Origin: Escherichia coli
Lineage (GTDB): Bacteria; Pseudomonadota; Gammaproteobacteria; Enterobacterales; Enterobacteriaceae
Direction: 5' to 3' (one strand)
DNA length: 64,000 bases
Assembly: GCF_030013595.1 (NCBI RefSeq)
Contig: NZ_CP122768.1
Part shown: positions 10,925 through 58,788 of the stretch, in pieces
Layout of the letters: every line of letters starts with the position of its first letter
How positions within the stretch are numbered: the first letter of the stretch is position 1
Made by a program: the position numbers and the translations under genes
The notes under the pieces: model-generated
Told to the model about the DNA's origin: nothing
The model's input: only the letters and a program-made list of their open reading frames with translations
Database searches by the model: none

Positions 10925-11821
10925 ATGGCCAAAGAAAGGGCATTAACGCTGGAAGCACTACGGGTTATGGATGCGATCGATCGCCGGGGCAGTTTTGCGG
11001 CGGCGGCGGATGAGCTGGGACGCGTGCCTTCCGCACTTAGCTACACCATGCAAAAACTGGAAGAAGAGCTGGATGTGGTGCTGTTTGACCGCTCGGGCCA
11101 TCGCACCAAATTCACCAATGTCGGGAGGATGTTGCTGGAGCGAGGGCGCGTTTTGCTGGAAGCCGCAGATAAACTGACTACTGATGCGGAAGCTCTCGCG
11201 CGCGGTTGGGAAACGCATCTCACCATTGTGACCGAAGCGCTGGTACCGACACCTGCCTTTTTCCCGTTAATCGATAAACTGGCGGCAAAAGCCAATACCC
11301 AACTGGCAATTATCACCGAAGTGCTGGCGGGGGCGTGGGAACGGCTGGAGCAGGGGCGGGCGGATATCGTTATCGCGCCGGATATGCATTTTCGTTCCTC
11401 GTCGGAGATCAACTCGCGCAAGCTCTATACGTTAATGAACGTCTACGTTGCCGCGCCTGATCACCCGATTCATCAGGAGCCGGAACCGTTATCTGAAGTG
11501 ACGCGCGTGAAATATCGTGGAATTGCGGTGGCGGATACCGCTCGTGAGCGCCCGGTATTGACCGTACAGCTACTGGACAAACAGCCGCGTTTAACGGTGA
11601 GCACGATTGAAGATAAACGTCAGGCATTACTGGCGGGGCTTGGCGTGGCGACGATGCCGTATCCGATGGTCGAAAAAGATATTGCGGAAGGGCGGTTGCG
11701 TGTCGTCAGCCCGGAATCGACCAGCGAGATCGATATTATTATGGCCTGGCGTCGTGACAGTATGGGGGAAGCGAAATCCTGGTGTCTGCGGGAAATTCCC
11801 AAACTTTTTAGCGGAAAATAA
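10925..11821 (+). CDS. yhaJ: LysR-family transcriptional regulator YhaJ
   Basis: 298-aa ORF with an N-terminal LysR HTH (LEALRVMDAIDRRGSFAAAADELGRVPSALS). Confidence 0.85.
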   Translation: MAKERALTLEALRVMDAIDRRGSFAAAADELGRVPSALSYTMQKLEEELDVVLFDRSGHRTKFTNVGRMLLERGRVLLEAADKLTTDAEALARGWETHLTIVTEALVPTPAFFPLIDKLAAKANTQLAIITEVLAGAWERLEQGRADIVIAPDMHFRSSSEINSRKLYTLMNVYVAAPDHPIHQEPEPLSEVTRVKYRGIAVADTARERPVLTVQLLDKQPRLTVSTIEDKRQALLAGLGVATMPYPMVEKDIAEGRLRVVSPESTSEIDIIMAWRRDSMGEAKSWCLREIPKLFSGK

Positions 11822-50342: not shown

Positions 50343-50916
50343 CTGATATATAAAAAGAAAAAGGCTGACGATTTCTCGTCAGCCTTTGCTATGTCTGGCC
50401 CTGCTGTCTCTTAATTGGTTGTGTAATTAATTGAAATTAAACAGGTAAATGCAATTTATTTTTTATCGATATGCCTTTTTGTATGCCTATTGGGAAAAAC
50501 ACGCTTTCTTCAACAGGGAATAAAAGCCGCTTTTATGGTGTTTTGAAACGGGTTTTAAAATGGCGCTCGTGGTGCTCTCGGGCACTCAATGGCGCTCTGT
50601 GATGTGGCTGGTGGTATGTGGCCGCCATGCATAATGGGGCTGATTTTGTTCATGGCCCGGCAGCGGGTGAGCATTTTTTACCATATTCAGGGTAAAAATG
50701 GGCGAAAAAGTTCATTTCTGGCATGGCCTGAAATGCCACGCAGCCCGCGCCGCGTGTGCTCTTGCCGGGGAAAACGGCGCGGAATAATGACCGCCACCCC
50801 ACCTTATGGCGGGCAGTCCCACGAAATCCCGGTTATTTCCGTTTATTCCCGGATTAATCCCGCCTTCTCCCGCATTCTCCCGGCTGTTCCCGGAATTAAT
50901 CGCCGTGGGGTGGTGG

Positions 50917-51207
50917 TTATCTGGTGTGGTCGTAGTTCTGCCGTAGTCGTTCACCCTCAGCGCAATGACGCGGTTTTTTAACGCCGCTGGTAACGCAACG
51001 CGGGCAGGTCATGACGTGGCTGATATACGCATCACGGGCAGCCAGCCACGTCGCTGACGGGGCGCACATATCCGCCAGCGCCTGGCCGTTGCTGGTGGTG
51101 TTGTCTTCCGGCCATGTTTCGGGCTGGTGCGCTTCCGGTAAATCCGGTGCAGGTAATGCCCGGATAAACTCACACAATGCATCCGGCAGGCTGAATAACT
51201 TATGCAT
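50917..51207 (-). CDS. Hypothetical 96-aa island protein with C-terminal Cys/His motif (CPRC...HC)
   Basis: ORF at the int-distal end of the island. A possible zinc-ribbon motif is present. The identification is weak. Confidence 0.4.
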   Translation of the reverse strand: MHKLFSLPDALCEFIRALPAPDLPEAHQPETWPEDNTTSNGQALADMCAPSATWLAARDAYISHVMTCPRCVTSGVKKPRHCAEGERLRQNYDHTR

Positions 51208-51630
51208 AAATCTGATGTTCTGAATCGCTGAAAACGTGCGTTTTATGGCGTTTTTTCGTGATTTCTGCGTGTTCTGATGTGCTCATTTCGCTGTATCCCT
51301 TGTGTGGCGCGGGCTGCGCGTGTGTTTCGGTGTTCTTTTTTACCGCCAGAAAACGGTAATCAGGCATATAAACACGGCTGTAAGCCGCGCCGCGTCTGGC
51401 TTCGCGTGATTTTGTGCGTCAAAAAGTGCATTTTTGCCCTTAAAAAGCGTTATTCGTAATTCACTGGTAAATGCTCCGCAGGCCGCGCCATTGCTGGCCT
51501 TTTCGCTATTCTGTGTGGTTTTGCTGTTTAACCCGTTTTGCACACTAAAATTGCCTTGCATCCCGCGCCACGTAAGGGATTGCCGGGTTTTTATGTTGCG
51601 TTTTTTGCCGTGCGTAATATTGTGCAAGTT

Positions 51631-51880
51631 GGTGGGACTGGTGGGAACTGTGGGAACCGCCTAGAACCACGCGGCTTTCAGTGGTTCCCACCAGTTCCCA
51701 CGTTGGCTTTTTGTGGGAACCGTGGCGGTTATTTTTTGTTCTTTGCGGTTCCCACCAGTTCCCGCAGAGTTCCCACTCAAAAACGAACAATAATCATACT
51801 GATGGTTTTATTATTTACTGATTTATATATGTTTTATTTTTACGGTTCCCACAGTTCCCACCAGTCCCACCACTTTTTCA
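51631..51880. repeat. Iteron array (GTTCCCAC/GTGGGAAC octamers, at least 12 copies in both orientations) flanking an AT-rich segment
   Basis: Repeats such as GGTGGGAACTGTGGGAACC, GTGGTTCCCACCAGTTCCCAC and ACGGTTCCCACAGTTCCCACCAGTCCCACC. An approximately 85% AT block lies at 51781-51842. The array is immediately downstream of the helicase gene. Confidence 0.6.
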
Positions 51881-51906
51881 GTTTTTAAAAACGCAATTTT
51901 TGTGAA

Positions 51907-53745
51907 TTATTCATCAATTGCGAATAACAATGCATTCTGGCCGATGGCGTAAACGCGGTGTTTCTCCCCGTTAACGGAAACGCGTTTTGTGTATCGGCGT
52001 TTCCCGTCCGTGTCGCGGTCAACAATCGCGCCAGCATCGTCAAGACTGGCCGCTATGCGTTTCAGGTCGTAGCCGCTGGCCGCCTCACATAGTGCTTCCG
52101 GTAAAAACCAGTAAACCCGCTCGCCGTTGCTCCCCGGTCGCCACCATCCGGCGCGGGTGCTTACTGGTTCGCTGTATGTGCTGCCCCCTTCAAAGCGTGA
52201 AGCATGGCGGGCGATAAACCCCGCGACGGCCCGGAGTATTTTCACGTCCTCCGATTGCCCCCGCCCACGATAGTCCGCCCACGCATCAAACATCGCTTTC
52301 ACTGCCTCCAGTGCTTCGCCCTGTTTCCACGGCAGAATCCCGGCAGTTATCGCCATTTCCCCGGCCAGTGCGCACAGTGTGAAACGCGCGGCGGCGCGTG
52401 CCTCCTGTCCGGTGCTTACGGGGAATTGTTCGCGCAGTATGGCGTACATATCCGCCAGCGTCTGGCCGTTGCTGTCGGTGCTGGTGGTGTCACTTTCATT
52501 GCGGGAAATCAGCCAGCGCACAAACTCCGGCCCGGCGTGGCCGTAATGGGTAGCCGCATTACCGCGCAGTGTTTCGGCAAATTTCCGGCCTGCTCCCCGG
52601 CGTTCTGTGTCGTTGTCGGGGTTGTGGGGTAGTGCCATTCCGTGAAGACAGTCAAATGCCCCGTAAAGCCGCTGTGCCGGAATATCCAGTAACCGCATTT
52701 CCTGCCCGGCCTTGATGCGCTGGCCGCCGCTTTCCATGTGTTTACCCACGGTCATTTCCCCGGTGGAAATAATCATGGTGCGCCATGTGTTGACCGGGCG
52801 GGCCATGCCGGACACCTTGCCACGCTGACGGCCTGTTCCGTTGCCAAGCTGATAAATCAGCCCGCCAATATCTCTGGCCGGGGCTTCGCCAATTTCATCC
52901 AGTATCAGCGCGGTATCGTTCCGCATGGTTGCCAGCCCTTCAAGCCCGGTGCTGGTGGCGTTCCAGTTGCGTTTAAAGTTGCGGGGTTCTCCCCATACGC
53001 TACAGGCCACCAGCGCCCCCACGCTTTTCCCGCTGGAACTGTCGCCCATGAAATGAAATCCGCCGCTGTCCACATCAAGCAACCACAGCAACGGCCCGGC
53101 GAGCGATGCACACACGGCCAGCATGGTTACCGGGTTTCCCCGGCATAATGCGGCCACGTTGTCGCGCCAGCCCTCCGGCGTTCCTGCGGTGGCGTACTCC
53201 TGTGAGCCTGCTTCTGTTGACTGAAACACCACATCACCATCACCGATAACCCCGCCCGGCATGACAAACAGGGCCGGGGAGTGCCACCCGGTGGCCGTGG
53301 CCGCGAGCGCCCGGCGTTTTGGTGCTGACTCCATGATGTATTCAGTCAGTGCCTGCCGTTGTTTGTAGGGAATGGTAACGCCCATGCGTAGCAGTTCCTG
53401 CCGGAGTTCTCCGCCGTCTCCGGCGAGCATTTCCATCGGTGCGGCCCATTCCCGCCACTGGCCTGACGGCGTGAGAAAACGGAGTAATCGCCCGTAGTTT
53501 TCGTCTTTGCTGTCGCTGGTCATGGCGATGACCTCCAGCGGGGAACATATAAACGTGTCTGTGTTGGTTGAGTCGCGCACGCCGTGCCAGTAAAGGCCGG
53601 GTTTCAGTATCTGGCCGCCGTCCACCTGTACATGCTGCGAATAAGTGGCGTAGCCCGGACGCGCCGGGCTGACTTTGGGGTGTTTCTTGCGTGGTGGTTT
53701 TCTCTTCCCGGATGTGACCGGGGTTTTAGTGGTTGTCCGGGTCAT
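51907..53745 (-). CDS. Replicative helicase-like protein (DUF927/P4-alpha C-terminal-like, Walker A GDSSSGKS)
   Basis: 612-aa ORF with P-loop GDSSSGKS and an ILDEIGE Walker B-like motif. It resembles phage/plasmid primase-helicase C-terminal regions. Confidence 0.75.
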   Translation of the reverse strand: MTRTTTKTPVTSGKRKPPRKKHPKVSPARPGYATYSQHVQVDGGQILKPGLYWHGVRDSTNTDTFICSPLEVIAMTSDSKDENYGRLLRFLTPSGQWREWAAPMEMLAGDGGELRQELLRMGVTIPYKQRQALTEYIMESAPKRRALAATATGWHSPALFVMPGGVIGDGDVVFQSTEAGSQEYATAGTPEGWRDNVAALCRGNPVTMLAVCASLAGPLLWLLDVDSGGFHFMGDSSSGKSVGALVACSVWGEPRNFKRNWNATSTGLEGLATMRNDTALILDEIGEAPARDIGGLIYQLGNGTGRQRGKVSGMARPVNTWRTMIISTGEMTVGKHMESGGQRIKAGQEMRLLDIPAQRLYGAFDCLHGMALPHNPDNDTERRGAGRKFAETLRGNAATHYGHAGPEFVRWLISRNESDTTSTDSNGQTLADMYAILREQFPVSTGQEARAAARFTLCALAGEMAITAGILPWKQGEALEAVKAMFDAWADYRGRGQSEDVKILRAVAGFIARHASRFEGGSTYSEPVSTRAGWWRPGSNGERVYWFLPEALCEAASGYDLKRIAASLDDAGAIVDRDTDGKRRYTKRVSVNGEKHRVYAIGQNALLFAIDE

Positions 53746-54769
53746 GCTCCATTTCCCATAGCATCAAATCGTTAAAGTCGGAAAGGTCTGGTGATGCACC
53801 GGGCGGCCATTCCGGGAATGTGACGTAACACCCGGCCAGCAATGCGGCTTCGTTGGCTGCTCTGGAACCGGGGTTATCTTTTGATGCCCGGTCATCATCC
53901 CCGGCGATAACGAGAGATATGCGCGAGCCGTATCGCTCACGCAGCGCCATAGCCACATGTTTAAGGTTTCCCGCATTCATGGCACACACCACGGCCATGA
54001 CGTTCCAGTACTGGAGAAGGGCGGCCCCGGTGGCCCACCCCTCACACACGTAAACGTCATGTTCCGGCGCTTCCGGGGCCATCAGGTCAAAGCTCCCCAT
54101 AACATGGAAAGCCCCCTGCACCTGACCATCACGGAGAAACATTTTTCGACCGTCCGGGCTGATAATCTGCACGTTCACCACTTCGCCGCATACGTTGTAC
54201 AGCGGGACAAGCAAATCATTACCTGACTGATACAGATTGCCGGGCTGTAGCCGTTTTTTCATGAGATAGGGATGAGAAGGGTTTGCCACCTCCGCCCGGC
54301 CAAGCAACTCAAAGGCCCGGCAGGCGGTCAGTTTCTGGCGCTGGTGGCGCTGTTGCTGTTCCCGCTGGCGGAGTCTGGCCGCCTCCTGTTCTGCGGCCTG
54401 TACCCGCACCCGTTGCGCCTCCCGTTGTTCGCGGGTCATTACATCAGGTTTGCCCAGCGCGGGCAGGCACAGCCCCAGCCTGTCCGCCACAATACGGGCG
54501 GCATCAGTCTGCCGCACATTCCATAAATAAGCCCCCAGCGCCACAAGGTCGCCGCCGCTGTCCCCGGTGGCGAAGTCGTGCCAGCATCCGTCCACCAGCG
54601 AGACGGAAAAACTGCCCGCGTGACGGTCTGCACGCGTGGGGTTACGACACACCCATTCAGTGGCCTGCCGTTTACCTTCGGGCAGCCATTCGGGAACAAG
54701 GATTTCTGCATGTTGTGCCGCCACTGCGGCAACGCTACGGATTGCGTTAATCGTGGCTATGTCACGCAT
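53726..54769 (-). CDS. Toprim-domain DNA primase (P4-alpha N-terminal-like), separate ORF
   Basis: Cys/His cluster CRNPTRADRHAGSFSVSLVDGCWHDF and toprim DVYVCEGWATGAAL...VIAGDDD. The likely start MRDIATINAI is at 54769 (track ORF starts at 54919). It overlaps the helicase ORF by 20 nt. Confidence 0.7.
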   Translation of the reverse strand: MRDIATINAIRSVAAVAAQHAEILVPEWLPEGKRQATEWVCRNPTRADRHAGSFSVSLVDGCWHDFATGDSGGDLVALGAYLWNVRQTDAARIVADRLGLCLPALGKPDVMTREQREAQRVRVQAAEQEAARLRQREQQQRHQRQKLTACRAFELLGRAEVANPSHPYLMKKRLQPGNLYQSGNDLLVPLYNVCGEVVNVQIISPDGRKMFLRDGQVQGAFHVMGSFDLMAPEAPEHDVYVCEGWATGAALLQYWNVMAVVCAMNAGNLKHVAMALRERYGSRISLVIAGDDDRASKDNPGSRAANEAALLAGCYVTFPEWPPGASPDLSDFNDLMLWEMEHDPDNH

Positions 54770-55076
54770 GTTGCCCGTCCTCCCTGATTTCCCCGGTGCG
54801 GCAGCGCCAGTTATACGCCTCCACAACCTCACTGAATCCGGCCACAAGTTCAGCCGTAACAGCGATGGAATCGCCCAGGCTGCGTAGTTCATTTGGACCA
54901 AGAGCATTATTGTCGCCAATTACCGAAAGTAGCCGCCCTGTGCCAGCCAGCGCATCAAGCAGTTTGCGGGCGCAGTAATCCGCATCATCAAACATTGCGC
55001 GGGCTTCCTGTGCGTCTGCGTTTTTGATGGCCGCAACCAGTAGTTCAGGTATCCGGGTGTTATACATATCACGCAT
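54762..55076 (-). CDS. Hypothetical 104-aa island protein
   Basis: ORF co-oriented and tightly packed between the Icd-like/hypothetical genes and the primase. No recognisable motif. Confidence 0.5.
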   Translation of the reverse strand: MRDMYNTRIPELLVAAIKNADAQEARAMFDDADYCARKLLDALAGTGRLLSVIGDNNALGPNELRSLGDSIAVTAELVAGFSEVVEAYNWRCRTGEIREDGQHA

Positions 55077-55365
55077 GGCTTACCTCCCCGGCCTGCTGGT
55101 CGTAACACTCCATCAGTTCGGCCATACAGCCAATGAGGGCAGGGGCTGTCTGTAGAAATCCGGCTAACTGGCAGATCTCGTCTCTGGAATAGGTGATGGG
55201 GTTTTCGCGTAACTGGCTTTCCTCCAGTGCCTTACCAACAAAGGCAATCCCCGCAAGTAAATTCACTCTGTGCCAGTCTGCATCAACGCGCAGACTCCAG
55301 CGGCTTTCTTCGTCCGGCATACTGCTCATGGCGGCTTTCATTGACTCACGCAGACAATCACGCAT
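55069..55365 (-). CDS. Hypothetical about 98-aa island protein
   Basis: ORF from MRDCLRESMKAAMSS. Upstream part of the track ORF is probably not translated. Confidence 0.45.
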   Translation of the reverse strand: MRDCLRESMKAAMSSMPDEESRWSLRVDADWHRVNLLAGIAFVGKALEESQLRENPITYSRDEICQLAGFLQTAPALIGCMAELMECYDQQAGEVSHA

Positions 55366-55558
55366 GACGCACCCCCTGAGCCGGAACGCGGCCAGCAAAC
55401 AGCAACACAAAATCACGCGCCAGCATACGGCGGGCGGTTGTTTCATCGGGTGCGTTGACGGATTCGCGGTGTGGGCGGTCGTTCAGGTCGGAACGGCGAA
55501 CAGCCAGAAAGTGAAAGGTAAATTCAGGGTGTAACGGGGTTGGGGTCGTAGCCATTCT
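55358..55558 (-). CDS. Icd-like small protein (P4 host cell-division inhibitor family)
   Basis: 66-aa ORF MATTPTPLHPEFTFHFLAVRRSDLNDRPHRESVNAPDETTARRMLARDFVLLFAGR preceded by AGGAGG. It is embedded in a longer, probably spurious 201-aa track ORF. Confidence 0.6.
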   Translation of the reverse strand, partial: RMATTPTPLHPEFTFHFLAVRRSDLNDRPHRESVNAPDETTARRMLARDFVLLFAGRVPAQGVRHA

Positions 55559-55741
55559 GGCAGCCTCCTTTTGCAAATTTAAGGAGTCACCGCCTGAGTT
55601 CCTACACTCATAAGGGGCGGTGACGCTGGCAGGGGTAGGAATACCGGCGCAAAAGGAAACCGGCCAGCCTTTCGGCTGCCCCACCAGCGCCACCATAGAT
55701 ACAGTGCGGGTCTTGCCGCTGTGCATGGGTGCGCGATGGCA

Positions 55742-55776
55742 CGACACAAAAAAAGACGCTGGGCGCGTCTGTGTCG
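55742..55776 (-). terminator. Rho-independent terminator downstream of alpA
   Basis: Stem GACGCGCCCAGCGTC followed by a U7 run on the minus strand. Confidence 0.5.
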
Positions 55777-55981
55777 CCTTTTGCTCATTAAACGGGTTCC
55801 TACGCCCGGCTGGTGGATTTACACCAGCGGGGGAAATATAACGCCCACCAGCGATGGCAGGCAAGCAATATTTGCGGTTGCCGCCCATCCCGTGGGGCGT
55901 GTGGTGGTTGTTTTGGGCGTGAGAACGCCCCGGCCCTGTTACGGGCCTTTCTGGCATTTTCATAATGATTATCGCGGTTGG

Positions 55982-56236
55982 TTAGTGGCTGGTGGGTTCT
56001 TTGTTTTTTTGCGCTCTGGCGATAATTTCTGCCATTACGTTATTGCGTTCCTCCACGCGGGCCGCAAGCCATGCATTAACTTCGGATTCAAACCATCCAA
56101 CGCGGCGCAGCCCGCGACGAAAGCCGGGGATAAATTCGCCAGCCCGAATCATGTCGTCAATGCTGGTAGTGGAACGAAGGCGCAGACGCGCAGCAACCTC
56201 GCGTTTGGTGAGGATTTTATCTTGTGTGGTGTCCAT
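55982..56236 (-). CDS. alpA: AlpA-family phage transcriptional regulator / excisionase-like
   Basis: 84 aa MDTTQDKILTKREVAARLRLRSTTSIDDMIRAGEFIPGFRRG...VGWFESEVNAWL. Confidence 0.75.
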   Translation of the reverse strand: MDTTQDKILTKREVAARLRLRSTTSIDDMIRAGEFIPGFRRGLRRVGWFESEVNAWLAARVEERNNVMAEIIARAQKNKEPTSH

Positions 56237-56369
56237 GATATTTCGCCTCTTAATTGTATTAATTGGCCCTAACTGGCCATAACAATATGGAAGCACAAGA
56301 AGGCGTGAAATTGCCGGACATGTCCATCAGATGGCTGACATGTCCGGCGTATACTCATTCGTGAATTGA

Positions 56370-57248
56370 CTAATCAACCTTAAACCAGCGTCGCATGGTT
56401 TTTTGTGAGGGCAGAGATAAACCAGCTTTGCAAAAATCGTTTTCTAATTCTGTTGGCTGGCCCTTGGTTTTGTCTTCTCTTACATGAAGCCATGGTTTGC
56501 CTCGCTTCGTTTCATCCTTGTAATACAGATAAAGCAAATCATCCACAAAAGCAGGCAGTGCGCTTCTTGGGTCTGGTTGTGTCGTCGGTGATGGTAGTTT
56601 TTTGGTTATGCACCCCATTAACATCCCGTTAGCGCAATCTCTCCCGCCATCCTTAAGGATTTCGATTTCTTCGGCGGTAATAAACAGGTCATCAATGCTT
56701 ACATCGAGTGGACTGGAATCAAAAGTAATCATCGGGCTGAGGGAATAATCGTCACCGTCAGTGTTCATTGTCCTTGGCTTTCCAAGAGAAAAACGAGCCG
56801 ATGACTTTCCATATTTTACAAAATCATAAAAAGGCATGGATTTGGTCAGGTTGCATATGGACATTAACCCTTCTATGGTCAAGTACCTGTATCCCATTAA
56901 AGGTATTTGGTTTTTCGGAATACCTCTGGGACGTTCTTCACTGATAAACAGAATTGCTGTTGTGACTTCAAAATCTCCCGCGCTATATGGTGTATAGACG
57001 GTAAATGGTAGCTGACACAGTGAATCGCCAAGCGGTTTAAATAAAACATACTTATCAGTTGATTTAGTTTCATAATGGTTAAACAGGTCAATTTCAGCCC
57101 GCCACCTTCCTGATATATGTGTACAAATCTCCAGCATTCCTATGTCAGCAAAATGAAGCAAATCATCAACACTGCACTTATTGGAGTTTGCAGTCAGATA
57201 ACTGGCCGCATCGCGTAGTGAGTAAAACAATCTTTTAGGTAATGCCAT
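56370..57248 (-). CDS. Hypothetical 292-aa orphan protein (AT-rich cargo gene between int and alpA)
   Basis: ORF with its likely ATG at 57248, immediately after the integrase stop. Coding DNA is visibly more AT-rich than the rest of the island. No recognisable domain. Confidence 0.6.
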   Translation of the reverse strand: MALPKRLFYSLRDAASYLTANSNKCSVDDLLHFADIGMLEICTHISGRWRAEIDLFNHYETKSTDKYVLFKPLGDSLCQLPFTVYTPYSAGDFEVTTAILFISEERPRGIPKNQIPLMGYRYLTIEGLMSICNLTKSMPFYDFVKYGKSSARFSLGKPRTMNTDGDDYSLSPMITFDSSPLDVSIDDLFITAEEIEILKDGGRDCANGMLMGCITKKLPSPTTQPDPRSALPAFVDDLLYLYYKDETKRGKPWLHVREDKTKGQPTELENDFCKAGLSLPSQKTMRRWFKVD

Positions 57249-57249
57249 A

Positions 57250-58524
57250 TTATTCACCAACCACTTTTAAGCCACGAAAACCGCCAGTTGCACTAAGGCT
57301 TCCGGTTGCTGCCTGTTCGATAAAATCACCCCACCACGCCATCAGTGGGCGGCGTTGCTCCAGATATGTGGAGCGATTGTAAGCCCGTCTCACCGTGTCC
57401 TTATCCAGATGGGAAAGCGCAGCCTCTATTACATCTGGCGGGAACCCCTGTTCATTAAGCGCCGTACTTGCTACAGAGCGTAAACCATGCGCCACCAGCT
57501 TTCCGGTATACCCCATGCGCCTGATAGCGGCGTTTGCGGTCTGTTGATGCATCCCACGCATGGGGTCGCTGTTATGTGGAAAAACAAACTTTCGATGCCC
57601 GCTGATTGGGCGCATGGCTTCAAGAATGGCCATTGCCTGATTATTCAGGGGGACAATGTGCTCCCTTCGTTGTTTTAGTCGCCCGGCTGATATACGCCAC
57701 ACTCTGGCATCTGCATCTATCTCGCTCCACTGTGCCCCGGCTGCCTCGCATGGGCGGCAAATAGTTAATAATTGCCATTCAATAACAAGACGCGTTTGAA
57801 GTTCTGCGCGAGCCGTTGCCAGTTTTTGCATAAATTCCGGCAACTCATCAGGCCTGATTGTTGGCATGTGTTTAACTACAGGTGGGTTGAATGCCTTGCT
57901 GATTTGAGCGGCGGGATTAGCTGGAATTAATCCAATATTCACTGCGTAATACATAACCTCATTGATTCTTTGTGCCAGCCGTCGCACCGTATCCGCTTTG
58001 CCCTGTGCTGATACAGGTTTCAGGGCTTCGATAAAATCCCGTGCAACCAGTTCTGTGATTGGGCGATGGCCTATGGGTGGCAGCACATGACGCTCAAGAG
58101 AACGCCATATATCACGGAGTGTATTTGCCGCCAGATTCTGGCCGCGCTTTACTTCAAACCATTCTTCGGCCACGCGCTGAAATGTGTTTAATCGCCGTAT
58201 TTCATCATCCCGGCGTTGTTTTTCCCTGTGTTCTTTGGGGTCAGTTCCATTTGCGACCAGTGAGCGATACTCGTCTTTAATCCTGCGAGCATCGGCAATG
58301 CTGATTTCGGGATATGCACCAAGGCTTAACATTGCCCGTTTTTTGGTGTGTGGCTTGTAGTACCGGAACCGCCATAAGGCTGATGCGCTACCCGCTTTCA
58401 CAACTAACTCCAGCCCATCGCCATCCGTGATAAATAAATCCTTCTCGGCGGTGAGCGATTTCTTCTGCAAACTTTTAATCGTCGCTGGTGTAAGTAATTT
58501 TGTGTTTTTGGCCACTGGTTGCAT
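57250..58524 (-). CDS. int: Tyrosine recombinase, P4-type integrase
   Basis: 424-aa ORF with an N-terminal arm-binding region and a catalytic region ending HGLRSVASTALNEQGFPPDVIEAALSHLDKDTVRRAYNRSTY. It lies adjacent to a tRNA gene. Confidence 0.9.
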   Translation of the reverse strand: MQPVAKNTKLLTPATIKSLQKKSLTAEKDLFITDGDGLELVVKAGSASALWRFRYYKPHTKKRAMLSLGAYPEISIADARRIKDEYRSLVANGTDPKEHREKQRRDDEIRRLNTFQRVAEEWFEVKRGQNLAANTLRDIWRSLERHVLPPIGHRPITELVARDFIEALKPVSAQGKADTVRRLAQRINEVMYYAVNIGLIPANPAAQISKAFNPPVVKHMPTIRPDELPEFMQKLATARAELQTRLVIEWQLLTICRPCEAAGAQWSEIDADARVWRISAGRLKQRREHIVPLNNQAMAILEAMRPISGHRKFVFPHNSDPMRGMHQQTANAAIRRMGYTGKLVAHGLRSVASTALNEQGFPPDVIEAALSHLDKDTVRRAYNRSTYLEQRRPLMAWWGDFIEQAATGSLSATGGFRGLKVVGE

Positions 58525-58632
58525 CCCGAAACAGGTTTAAGGCATACGAGATTGCTTCTGTTTGTGAGGATATGCCTTGATGTATGCCTAAAGAATCTGG
58601 CTTATACCTTAGCAAACTGGCCAAAACTGGAC

Positions 58633-58668
58633 AATAAAAAACCCGCAAGCCTTGTGTGGCGCGGGTTT
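58633..58668 (-). terminator. Rho-independent terminator downstream of ileX
   Basis: Stem ACCCGCGCCACACAAGGCTTGCGGGT followed by UUUUUUAUU on the minus strand. Confidence 0.5.
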
Positions 58669-58712
58669 CGTCTGATTAACTGGCCGTATCTGATACTAAC
58701 CGAATGTCAATT

Positions 58713-58788
58713 TGGTGGCCCCTGCTGGACTTGAACCAGCGACCAAGCGATTATGAGTCGCCTGCTCTAACCACTGAGCTAAGGGGCC
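58713..58788 (-). tRNA. ileX: tRNA-Ile2 (anticodon CAU, lysidine type; ileX-like)
   Basis: 76-nt cloverleaf GGCCCCTTAGCTCAGTGGTTAGAGCAGGCGACTCATAATCGCTTGGTCGCTGGTTCAAGTCCAGCAGGGGCCACCA with anticodon CAT and encoded CCA. Context is mug/rpoD. Confidence 0.9.

Follow-up and report, generated by a model that had tools for sequence, protein, structure and literature searches.

The window analysed here, 64,000 nucleotides of an Escherichia coli chromosome that are 100% identical to several pig ETEC strains, contains an island of ~8.3 kb (~50400 to 58712) between nfeF (yqjH) and the tRNA gene ileX, which lie side by side in the empty site of K-12. The ARAGORN call for the gene at 58713-58788 is tRNA-Met (anticodon CAT); its position and the K-12 RefSeq annotation make it ileX, tRNA-Ile(CAU). 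A degenerate copy of the ileX 3' end at ~50395-50412 marks the other (left) island end. The motif CCTTGTGTGGCGCGGG (51298 and 58650) was considered as an att site and rejected, because comparison with the unoccupied K-12 site gives island ends of ~50400 and 58712; the motif belongs to a family of GC-rich hairpins. All island genes are on the minus strand (Table 1), and their order is: integrase, a 296-aa uncharacterised protein, a weakly AlpA-like HTH protein (E 0.003, under the Pfam cut-off), a C4/isrK region with an Ash/Icd-like ORF, two small uncharacterised genes, a Toprim primase, a 612-aa DUF927 helicase, a gene-free stretch of 700 bp, and a 96-aa ORF. The gene-free stretch, downstream of the helicase gene, opens with a dense array of short repeats (iterons).

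Table 1. Features of the island and of the iteron array (positions in the window)
Feature	Position	Strand	Basis
tRNA ileX, anticodon CAU, island integration site	58713..58788	-	position and K-12 RefSeq annotation
Tyrosine integrase of the island	57250..58524	-	domain profiles
Toprim (DnaG/P4-alpha-type) primase	53726..54769	-	RefSeq start; longest ORF reaches 54919
DUF927 helicase, 612 aa, proposed origin-binding self-loading replicative helicase	51907..53745	-	Pfam, PDB, Foldseek
Whole iteron array, proposed origin	51630..51872	.	12 sites, repeat anatomy
Helicase-proximal iteron triplet (GTTCCCAC, GTTCCCAC, GTCCCAC), 9-bp spacing	51843..51872	.	30-bp inverted-repeat arm
AT-rich block, 66 bp, 18% GC (82% AT), proposed DNA-unwinding element	51777..51842	.	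GC profile
Second iteron triplet (GTTCCCAC, GTTCCCGC, GTTCCCAC)	51748..51776	.	oriented as the proximal triplet
Single opposite-orientation iteron (GTGGGAAC on the + strand)	51713..51720	.	exact-copy search
Iteron pair (GTTCCCAC x2, 10-bp spacing)	51684..51701	.	exact-copy search
Short palindrome GAACCAC-N10-GTGGTTC inside the array	51664..51687	.	inverted-repeat search
Distal iteron triplet, inverted (GTGGGAC, GTGGGAAC, GTGGGAAC)	51630..51659	.	other 30-bp inverted-repeat arm

Two Rfam families exceed their gathering scores in the island, the C4 antisense RNA (55613-55700, 79.6 bits) and isrK (55749-55828, 60.7 bits), and the C4 target sites a1/b1 give a sub-threshold match. All these matches (55613-55841) overlap the Ash/Icd-like ORF, which precedes the replication genes, and they suggest an RNA immunity switch of the P4/P1 type that may control the replication operon. 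No late, packaging or capsid genes came up when the island ORFs were scanned with Pfam and PHROG, the scan of island genes found no partition genes and no sid, psu or delta, and PADLOC found no defence genes among the uncharacterised proteins. Searches for P2/P4 cos found none in or beside the array, and the sole match to lambda cos, with one mismatch and at chance level, lies inside the primase gene.

Of 5,426 complete E. coli genomes, 31 carry the helicase gene, always on the chromosome and in single copy, and a DNA-level search of the complete genomes found no more distant relatives. In E. coli JNEC-KY202 (locus L003, 8486-18647) the replication module and a copy of the candidate origin, 96-97% identical, are found in a different island, which has another integrase, lies between yicC and dinD, and also carries an ssb fragment, PerC and Mor genes and a tRNA-Tyr. 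Mobilisable islands that carry DUF927, the role of which was called unknown there, are reported to integrate at the 3' end of yicC (PMC7449626). Within the present island, a 43-nt stretch of the 96-aa ORF (51061-51103) is 88% identical to part of the helicase gene (52441-52483, residues ~422-435), while the remaining parts of the two proteins are unrelated. This repeat prompted the idea that 50400-51300 is the remnant of an older tandem island, with the 96-aa ORF as the end of its helicase gene. The idea was ruled out, since the protein similarity is limited to 14 residues and the segment moves with the island to another integration site; the repeat may be a recombination scar.

The array contains nine exact copies of GTTCCCAC/GTGGGAAC, on both strands, from 51641 to 51861; elsewhere in the 64-kb window an exact GTTCCCAC occurs once, at 11335. 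Three further sites are degenerate: GTTCCCGC at 51758-51765 has one mismatch, and GTGGGAC (51632-51638) and GTCCCAC (51863-51869) are each one base short. In the direction of the helicase gene, the consensus of the 12 sites is (T/C)GGTGGGAAC(C/T)G. Only ~0.008 exact copies of GTTCCCAC are expected per 250 bp, and the Poisson probability of at least nine is thus ~2e-25. The units are 8-10 bp long, face both ways, and are spaced by 9-11 bp inside the triplets. Together, the outer triplets at the two ends make a perfect 30-bp inverted repeat, whose arms are 183 bp apart.

The array starts 35 bp past the stop codon of the helicase gene (51907). The GC content around the AT-rich block is otherwise 45-60%, and the block itself is flanked on each side by an iteron triplet, both triplets in the same orientation; three iterons lie on its helicase side and nine on the opposite side, including the inverted triplet. 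Relatives with another iteron have AT-rich blocks that align with this one. The short palindrome of the array occupies a slot that in relatives holds an AGCC-GCGCCNCGTCT-GGCT hairpin motif. RefSeq annotates no CDS over the array, an Rfam scan gave no credible RNA family there, and a promoter and terminator scan covering 50350-52100 detected neither promoter-like sites nor a terminator past the helicase gene. A sequence-only reading of this DNA had described at least a dozen copies of an octamer, in both orientations within ~250 bp, around an AT-rich segment downstream of primase and helicase genes. Its orientations, its quoted strings, the AT-rich segment and the location, with the Toprim primase gene before the helicase gene, all agree with the present anatomy; the dozen is reached only by adding the three degenerate copies to the nine exact ones. 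The same reading set aside a CRISPR array, rightly so: the units are short, they occur in both orientations with irregular spacing, and there are no direct repeats longer than 20 bp with regular unique spacers.

It is extremely improbable that the repeats are functionless, whether as a miniature transposon, a decayed CRISPR array or a product of chance. The perfect 30-bp inverted repeat, with arms 183 bp apart, could resemble transposon ends, but the arms are themselves iteron triplets and the iteron recurs between them. Neither the 8-10-bp units, which lack regular spacers, nor the single copy of the array in each of the 31 E. coli genomes fits these origins, and a like layout built from other sequences is found at the same place in dozens of unrelated genomes.

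The helicase matches DUF927 in Pfam (8e-83), and in phmmer searches it matches Cch of SCCmec (5dgk, 1e-17) and the replication initiator of SaPIbov1 (8tch, 1e-12); NCBIfam gives a partial match to Cch1. In Foldseek comparisons, the AlphaFold model aligns with both 5dgk and 8tch (E ~1e-15 each) over ~600 columns, and the best match in both structure and sequence is Cch. The model has a mean pLDDT of 70, with a poorly predicted ATPase core, and residues 530-611 form a compact alpha/beta domain (pLDDT ~85). Among homologues, identity breaks off at residue ~520, and the segment that follows (~520-612) is a variable C-terminal domain that varies with the iteron. By these matches, the protein is a homologue of the SaPI Rep and Cch initiator helicases (DUF927, MCM-like AAA+). 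The SaPIbov1 Rep/Cch family is described as one of self-loading initiator helicases (PMC9371898; PMC7581432).

The array is probably the vegetative replication origin of the integrase island at tRNA ileX, judging from its anatomy and position, the homology of the helicase, and the conservation and covariation seen among relatives. After excision of the island, the DUF927 helicase would bind the 8-10-bp iterons via its C-terminal domain (~residues 520-612), and helicase oligomers would form on the oppositely oriented sets of iterons. The 66-bp AT block between the first two triplets would then melt, the helicase would load itself on the single-stranded DNA, the adjacent Toprim primase would lay primers, and the host polymerase would complete replication. 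In this scheme, we infer the binding through the C-terminal domain, the melting of the AT block and replication itself. The geometry does not fully match that described for SaPIs, as the triplets that flank the AT block are co-oriented and the opposite set lies ~180 bp away.

Helicase homologues (36-99% identity) were surveyed at 80 loci on contigs from one genome per species, of which 74 were usable. The best clustered 7-mer of the ~9.7-kb locus lies 0-400 bp past the helicase stop in 50 of the 74, compared with ~3 expected from position, and 50 loci beat all 200 shuffles of their own downstream region. At 29 loci there are at least eight sites that start with >> and end with <<, with a median span of 193 bp. 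The recurring plan begins with a triplet that faces away from the gene, continues with inner pairs and ends in an inverted triplet (→→→ … ←←←, ~190 bp), and several lineages have in common the exact string >>><>><<><<< at near-identical offsets. The iteron word differs from lineage to lineage: GTGGGAAC (GTGGGAA), CGGGAAC, GGGAACA, GAAGACA, GGGGACA, GGTGACA, GGGTTAC, GTGTAAC and GGTGAGA. The strongest repeat cluster lies elsewhere than directly downstream of the helicase gene in 24 of the 74 loci, and no array was found downstream of the related helicases in a Pseudomonas satellite-like record and a Nitrosoglobus plasmid. The array stays with the helicase gene even where the surroundings differ greatly, Ash, Bro-N and AlpA genes being present in some and absent from others. 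By this comparison of sequences, the position of the array and its plan of slots are conserved in distant relatives. The sequence-only reading had proposed looking for the octamer in related elements; it is the place and the slot plan that recur, and GTGGGAAC itself is kept only in some of them, the others having a different word.

Among the loci without their strongest cluster directly downstream, 11 distant ones (L025, L027, L028, L029, L034, L039, L045, L047, L060, L064 and L069) have a cluster of an iteron-type word immediately 5' of the helicase gene, ~1.75-1.85 kb ahead of its stop codon. For loci with both clusters listed (e.g. L027 and L028), the upstream word equals that of the downstream array, so that an array stands on either side of the helicase gene, which recalls P4 ori plus crr. 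A 6,989-bp putative plasmid of Salmonella (L085, OX345456.1) has a fused Toprim-DUF927 gene of 896 codons with a GGTAACA iteron array directly 3' of it, on the >>> … <<< plan. If this is a true small replicon or an excised circle, the Toprim-DUF927-array module may suffice for autonomous replication. The Nitrosoglobus plasmid was rejected as proof of autonomy, as it also carries RepM and is without the array. pIGMS31 proved to be unrelated.

Closer relatives show what changes together. Six extra loci (L087-L092), from Salmonella, Klebsiella, Plesiomonas and a metagenome, encode helicases that are 80-100% identical to that of the window over residues 40-520 and primases that are 72-93% identical; over residues 520-612 the helicase identity drops abruptly to 42-54%. 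Their downstream regions can be aligned with that of the window, including the AT block, but every iteron slot reads GGGGACA and not GTGGGAAC. In Brenneria (L005), the core is 80% identical and the C-terminal domain ~50%, and all slots contain CGGGAAC. GTGGGAAC is kept in E. albertii (L004), where the C-terminal domain is 96% identical, and in Tenebrionibacter (L006), where it is ~80% identical. Three iteron types (GTGGGAAC, GGGGACA and CGGGAAC) thus pair with three types of C-terminal domain. A cognate binding domain and its sites should change in just this way, all slots in concert with one protein module, and on this comparative evidence the helicase and the iterons appear to be cognate, as Rep proteins and their iterons are. 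The C-terminal domain adjoins the array on the DNA, and linkage, not function, may therefore explain part of their joint replacement; against linkage as the only cause, the spacers stay alignable while the slots change. Over all distant pairs, the correlation between C-terminal identity and iteron similarity is weak (Spearman 0.12) with a crude measure of similarity, and the covariation argument therefore relies on the close relatives.

The same observations bear on the idea that the array is bound by some other island or host protein, as an operator of the AlpA-like or Ash/Icd protein, a partition centromere or a packaging site, and has nothing to do with the helicase. Short-repeat arrays in two orientations are indeed also known at operators, centromeres and pac sites. 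However, the array tracks the helicase gene while its Ash, Bro-N and AlpA neighbours vary, and its sequence shifts with the C-terminal domain of the helicase while the primase and the helicase core stay similar. No partition genes were found in the island, and neither P2/P4 nor lambda cos was found in or beside the array. Binding by an unrelated protein is therefore very unlikely. The reading as an island origin, which the sequence-only account had already put forward, gains from three sides: the gene context, the homology of the helicase to origin-binding initiators, and the comparative evidence.

Among known systems, the nearest family is the pri-rep-ori module of SaPIs and PICIs, whose origin immediately follows the rep helicase gene (PMC9371898; PMC7581432; PMC6092414), and not P4 ori/crr. 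SaPI Reps bind 6-12 short iterons with an AT-rich centre immediately 3' of rep, via a C-terminal winged helix (PMC9371898; PMC7581432). Origins of E. coli PICIs comprise two sets of iterons about an AT-rich region, and a pri-rep-ori segment of EcCICFT073 drives plasmid replication (PMC6092414). Gram-negative PICIs are described as having int, alpA, a Bro/Ash zone with possible C4/isrK RNAs, a primase from a family to which DUF927 is assigned, and, downstream of it, the origin (PMC10111431).

The island shares with these elements a helicase homologous to SaPIbov1 Rep and Cch, a primase gene directly upstream of it, and the candidate origin site directly 3', where 50 of the 74 homologous loci also have theirs. 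It likewise has an AT-rich block among ~12 short iterons of either orientation, and an iteron specificity that appears to follow the helicase C-terminal domain. SaPI and PICI origins are expected to have 6-12 iterons, with at least two opposed ones per side of the AT region; the island has such a number on the two sides, with the AT-adjacent triplets co-oriented. The integrase, the AlpA-like gene (a weak match), the replication genes and the candidate origin are arranged one way at an att site, as in Gram-negative PICIs, whereas the packaging or capsid genes and the cos site of those elements were not found in the Pfam, PHROG and cos searches of the island. Other differences are the primase, which is of the Toprim (DnaG/P4-alpha) type in the island and of the AEP type in SaPIbov1 (PMC7581432), the iteron, an octamer of new sequence, and the arrangement of the triplets, those that flank the AT block pointing in the same direction and the inverted set being at the far end. 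The likeness to EcCICFT073 is drawn from its published description. Cch2 of SCCmec binds direct repeats just 3' of its own gene through its C-terminal domain (PMC7581432), and Cch is the best structural and sequence match to the island helicase; SCC elements differ in having an origin of ~three 5-nt repeats, serine recombinases and other partner proteins, and in being Gram-positive.

P4 offers a partial parallel. In its annotation, crr carries type 1 octamers of both orientations and follows the alpha gene by 46 bp, so that the positional analogy is real; ori is placed 4.5 kb from crr. The Toprim part of alpha is related to the island primase domain (33% identity, E 5e-15), and P4 also has a C4/CI-type antisense RNA region upstream of its replication genes, an integrase and a tRNA integration site. 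In contrast, the helicase part of alpha is D5_N/DUF5906/Pox_D5 and that of the island is DUF927, with no detectable similarity between the two in BLASTP (E 0.33), and primase and helicase are separate genes in the island but fused in alpha. The P4 octamer TGTTCACC has two copies in the 64 kb, a chance-level count, and none in the island. P4 has two octamer clusters 4.5 kb apart and the island one, its second array (50820-50900) being composed of related but different units; the island is also without sid, psu, delta and a P2-type cos, all of which were searched for. Membership of the P4 family was therefore rejected, only the primase domain being shared: the helicase shows no detectable similarity to alpha, TGTTCACC is absent from the island and there is a single cluster, and the site is thus not a P4-type origin by membership. 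The sequence-only reading had proposed the P4 ori/crr architecture with a different octamer. The positional likeness, the primase kinship and the difference in the octamer stand; the helicase family, the octamer itself and the two-site layout do not fit P4. By analogy, the island origin most likely works like those of the SaPI/PICI type, in the company of a P4-like primase and a P4-like RNA immunity region upstream.

The position of P4 crr, directly after alpha, also lends some weight to the idea that the array is an auxiliary cis site bound by the helicase (an enhancer like P4 crr, or a copy-control, handcuffing or autoregulatory site) and that initiation takes place elsewhere in the island. 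Support also comes from another, degenerate array of related units at 50820-50900, a distance of 0.8 kb, and from some distant relatives in which the same iteron is clustered again 5' of the helicase gene. However, the island has no other cluster of the exact octamer, the array holds its sole strongly AT-rich block, flanked by iterons, and in the homologous SaPI/PICI systems the corresponding site just past rep serves as the origin itself (PMC9371898; PMC6092414). An auxiliary role with initiation elsewhere is thus improbable, though less so than binding by an unrelated protein, and the preferred reading is that replication would start within the array itself.

Other repeats accompany the array. 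The second array begins ~20 bp past the stop codon of the 96-aa ORF and consists of ~eight direct repeats with a spacing of 10-11 bp, which read CCGGGAA, CCGGGAG, GCGGGAG, GCGGGAT, CCGGGAA, ACGGAAA, CCGGGAT and GTGGGAC in the helicase direction and are flanked by the short inverted repeats CCACCCCAC / GTGGGGTGG. These units differ by one or two changes from the origin iteron and equal the Brenneria iteron, and Tenebrionibacter (L006) has a similar array after a homologous small ORF. This array may be a second cis site. In the gene-free stretch, at 51290-51590, a GC-rich motif (GCAnSCCGCGCCR) with a short complementary run recurs every ~80-95 bp, with copies also at 50744 and at 58650-58670 (near int and the tRNA gene), one of the copies being inverted. 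The motif could fold into a 5-bp stem with an 11-nt loop; the iteron array contains a related palindrome. Its core SCCGCGCCR is found 16 times in the window against 6.2 expected, five of these in 50744-51570, and homologous copies of the hairpin motif are present in relatives. That they are priming hairpins is a guess.

The array provides a concrete candidate origin for a rare E. coli island, whose replication module joins a P4-like primase with an initiator helicase of the SaPI/SCCmec type. The design principle was already known, and in this respect the gain is incremental; the recognition sequence is new. On helicases that are otherwise ~85% identical there are at least three natural pairs of C-terminal domain and iteron, which are material for the study of how self-loading helicases read their origins. 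The findings also suggest that DUF927 genes of unassigned role in other genomic islands are parts of replication modules. A broader reading, possible but doubtful, is that DUF927 helicases of the Cch/SaPIbov1-Rep family across Proteobacteria use one origin blueprint of ~12 slots in ~190 bp, bounded by inverted triplets, whose specificity would be re-coded by swapping the last ~90 residues together with all slots; here the origin would perhaps be composite, with the 50820-50900 array and the 51290-51590 hairpins as crr-like or priming sites. If this were true, a protein-DNA recognition code could be read from the natural pairs, and DUF927 genes in mobilisable islands (the MGIVchHai6 and MGIVflInd1 families) would mark self-replicating elements.
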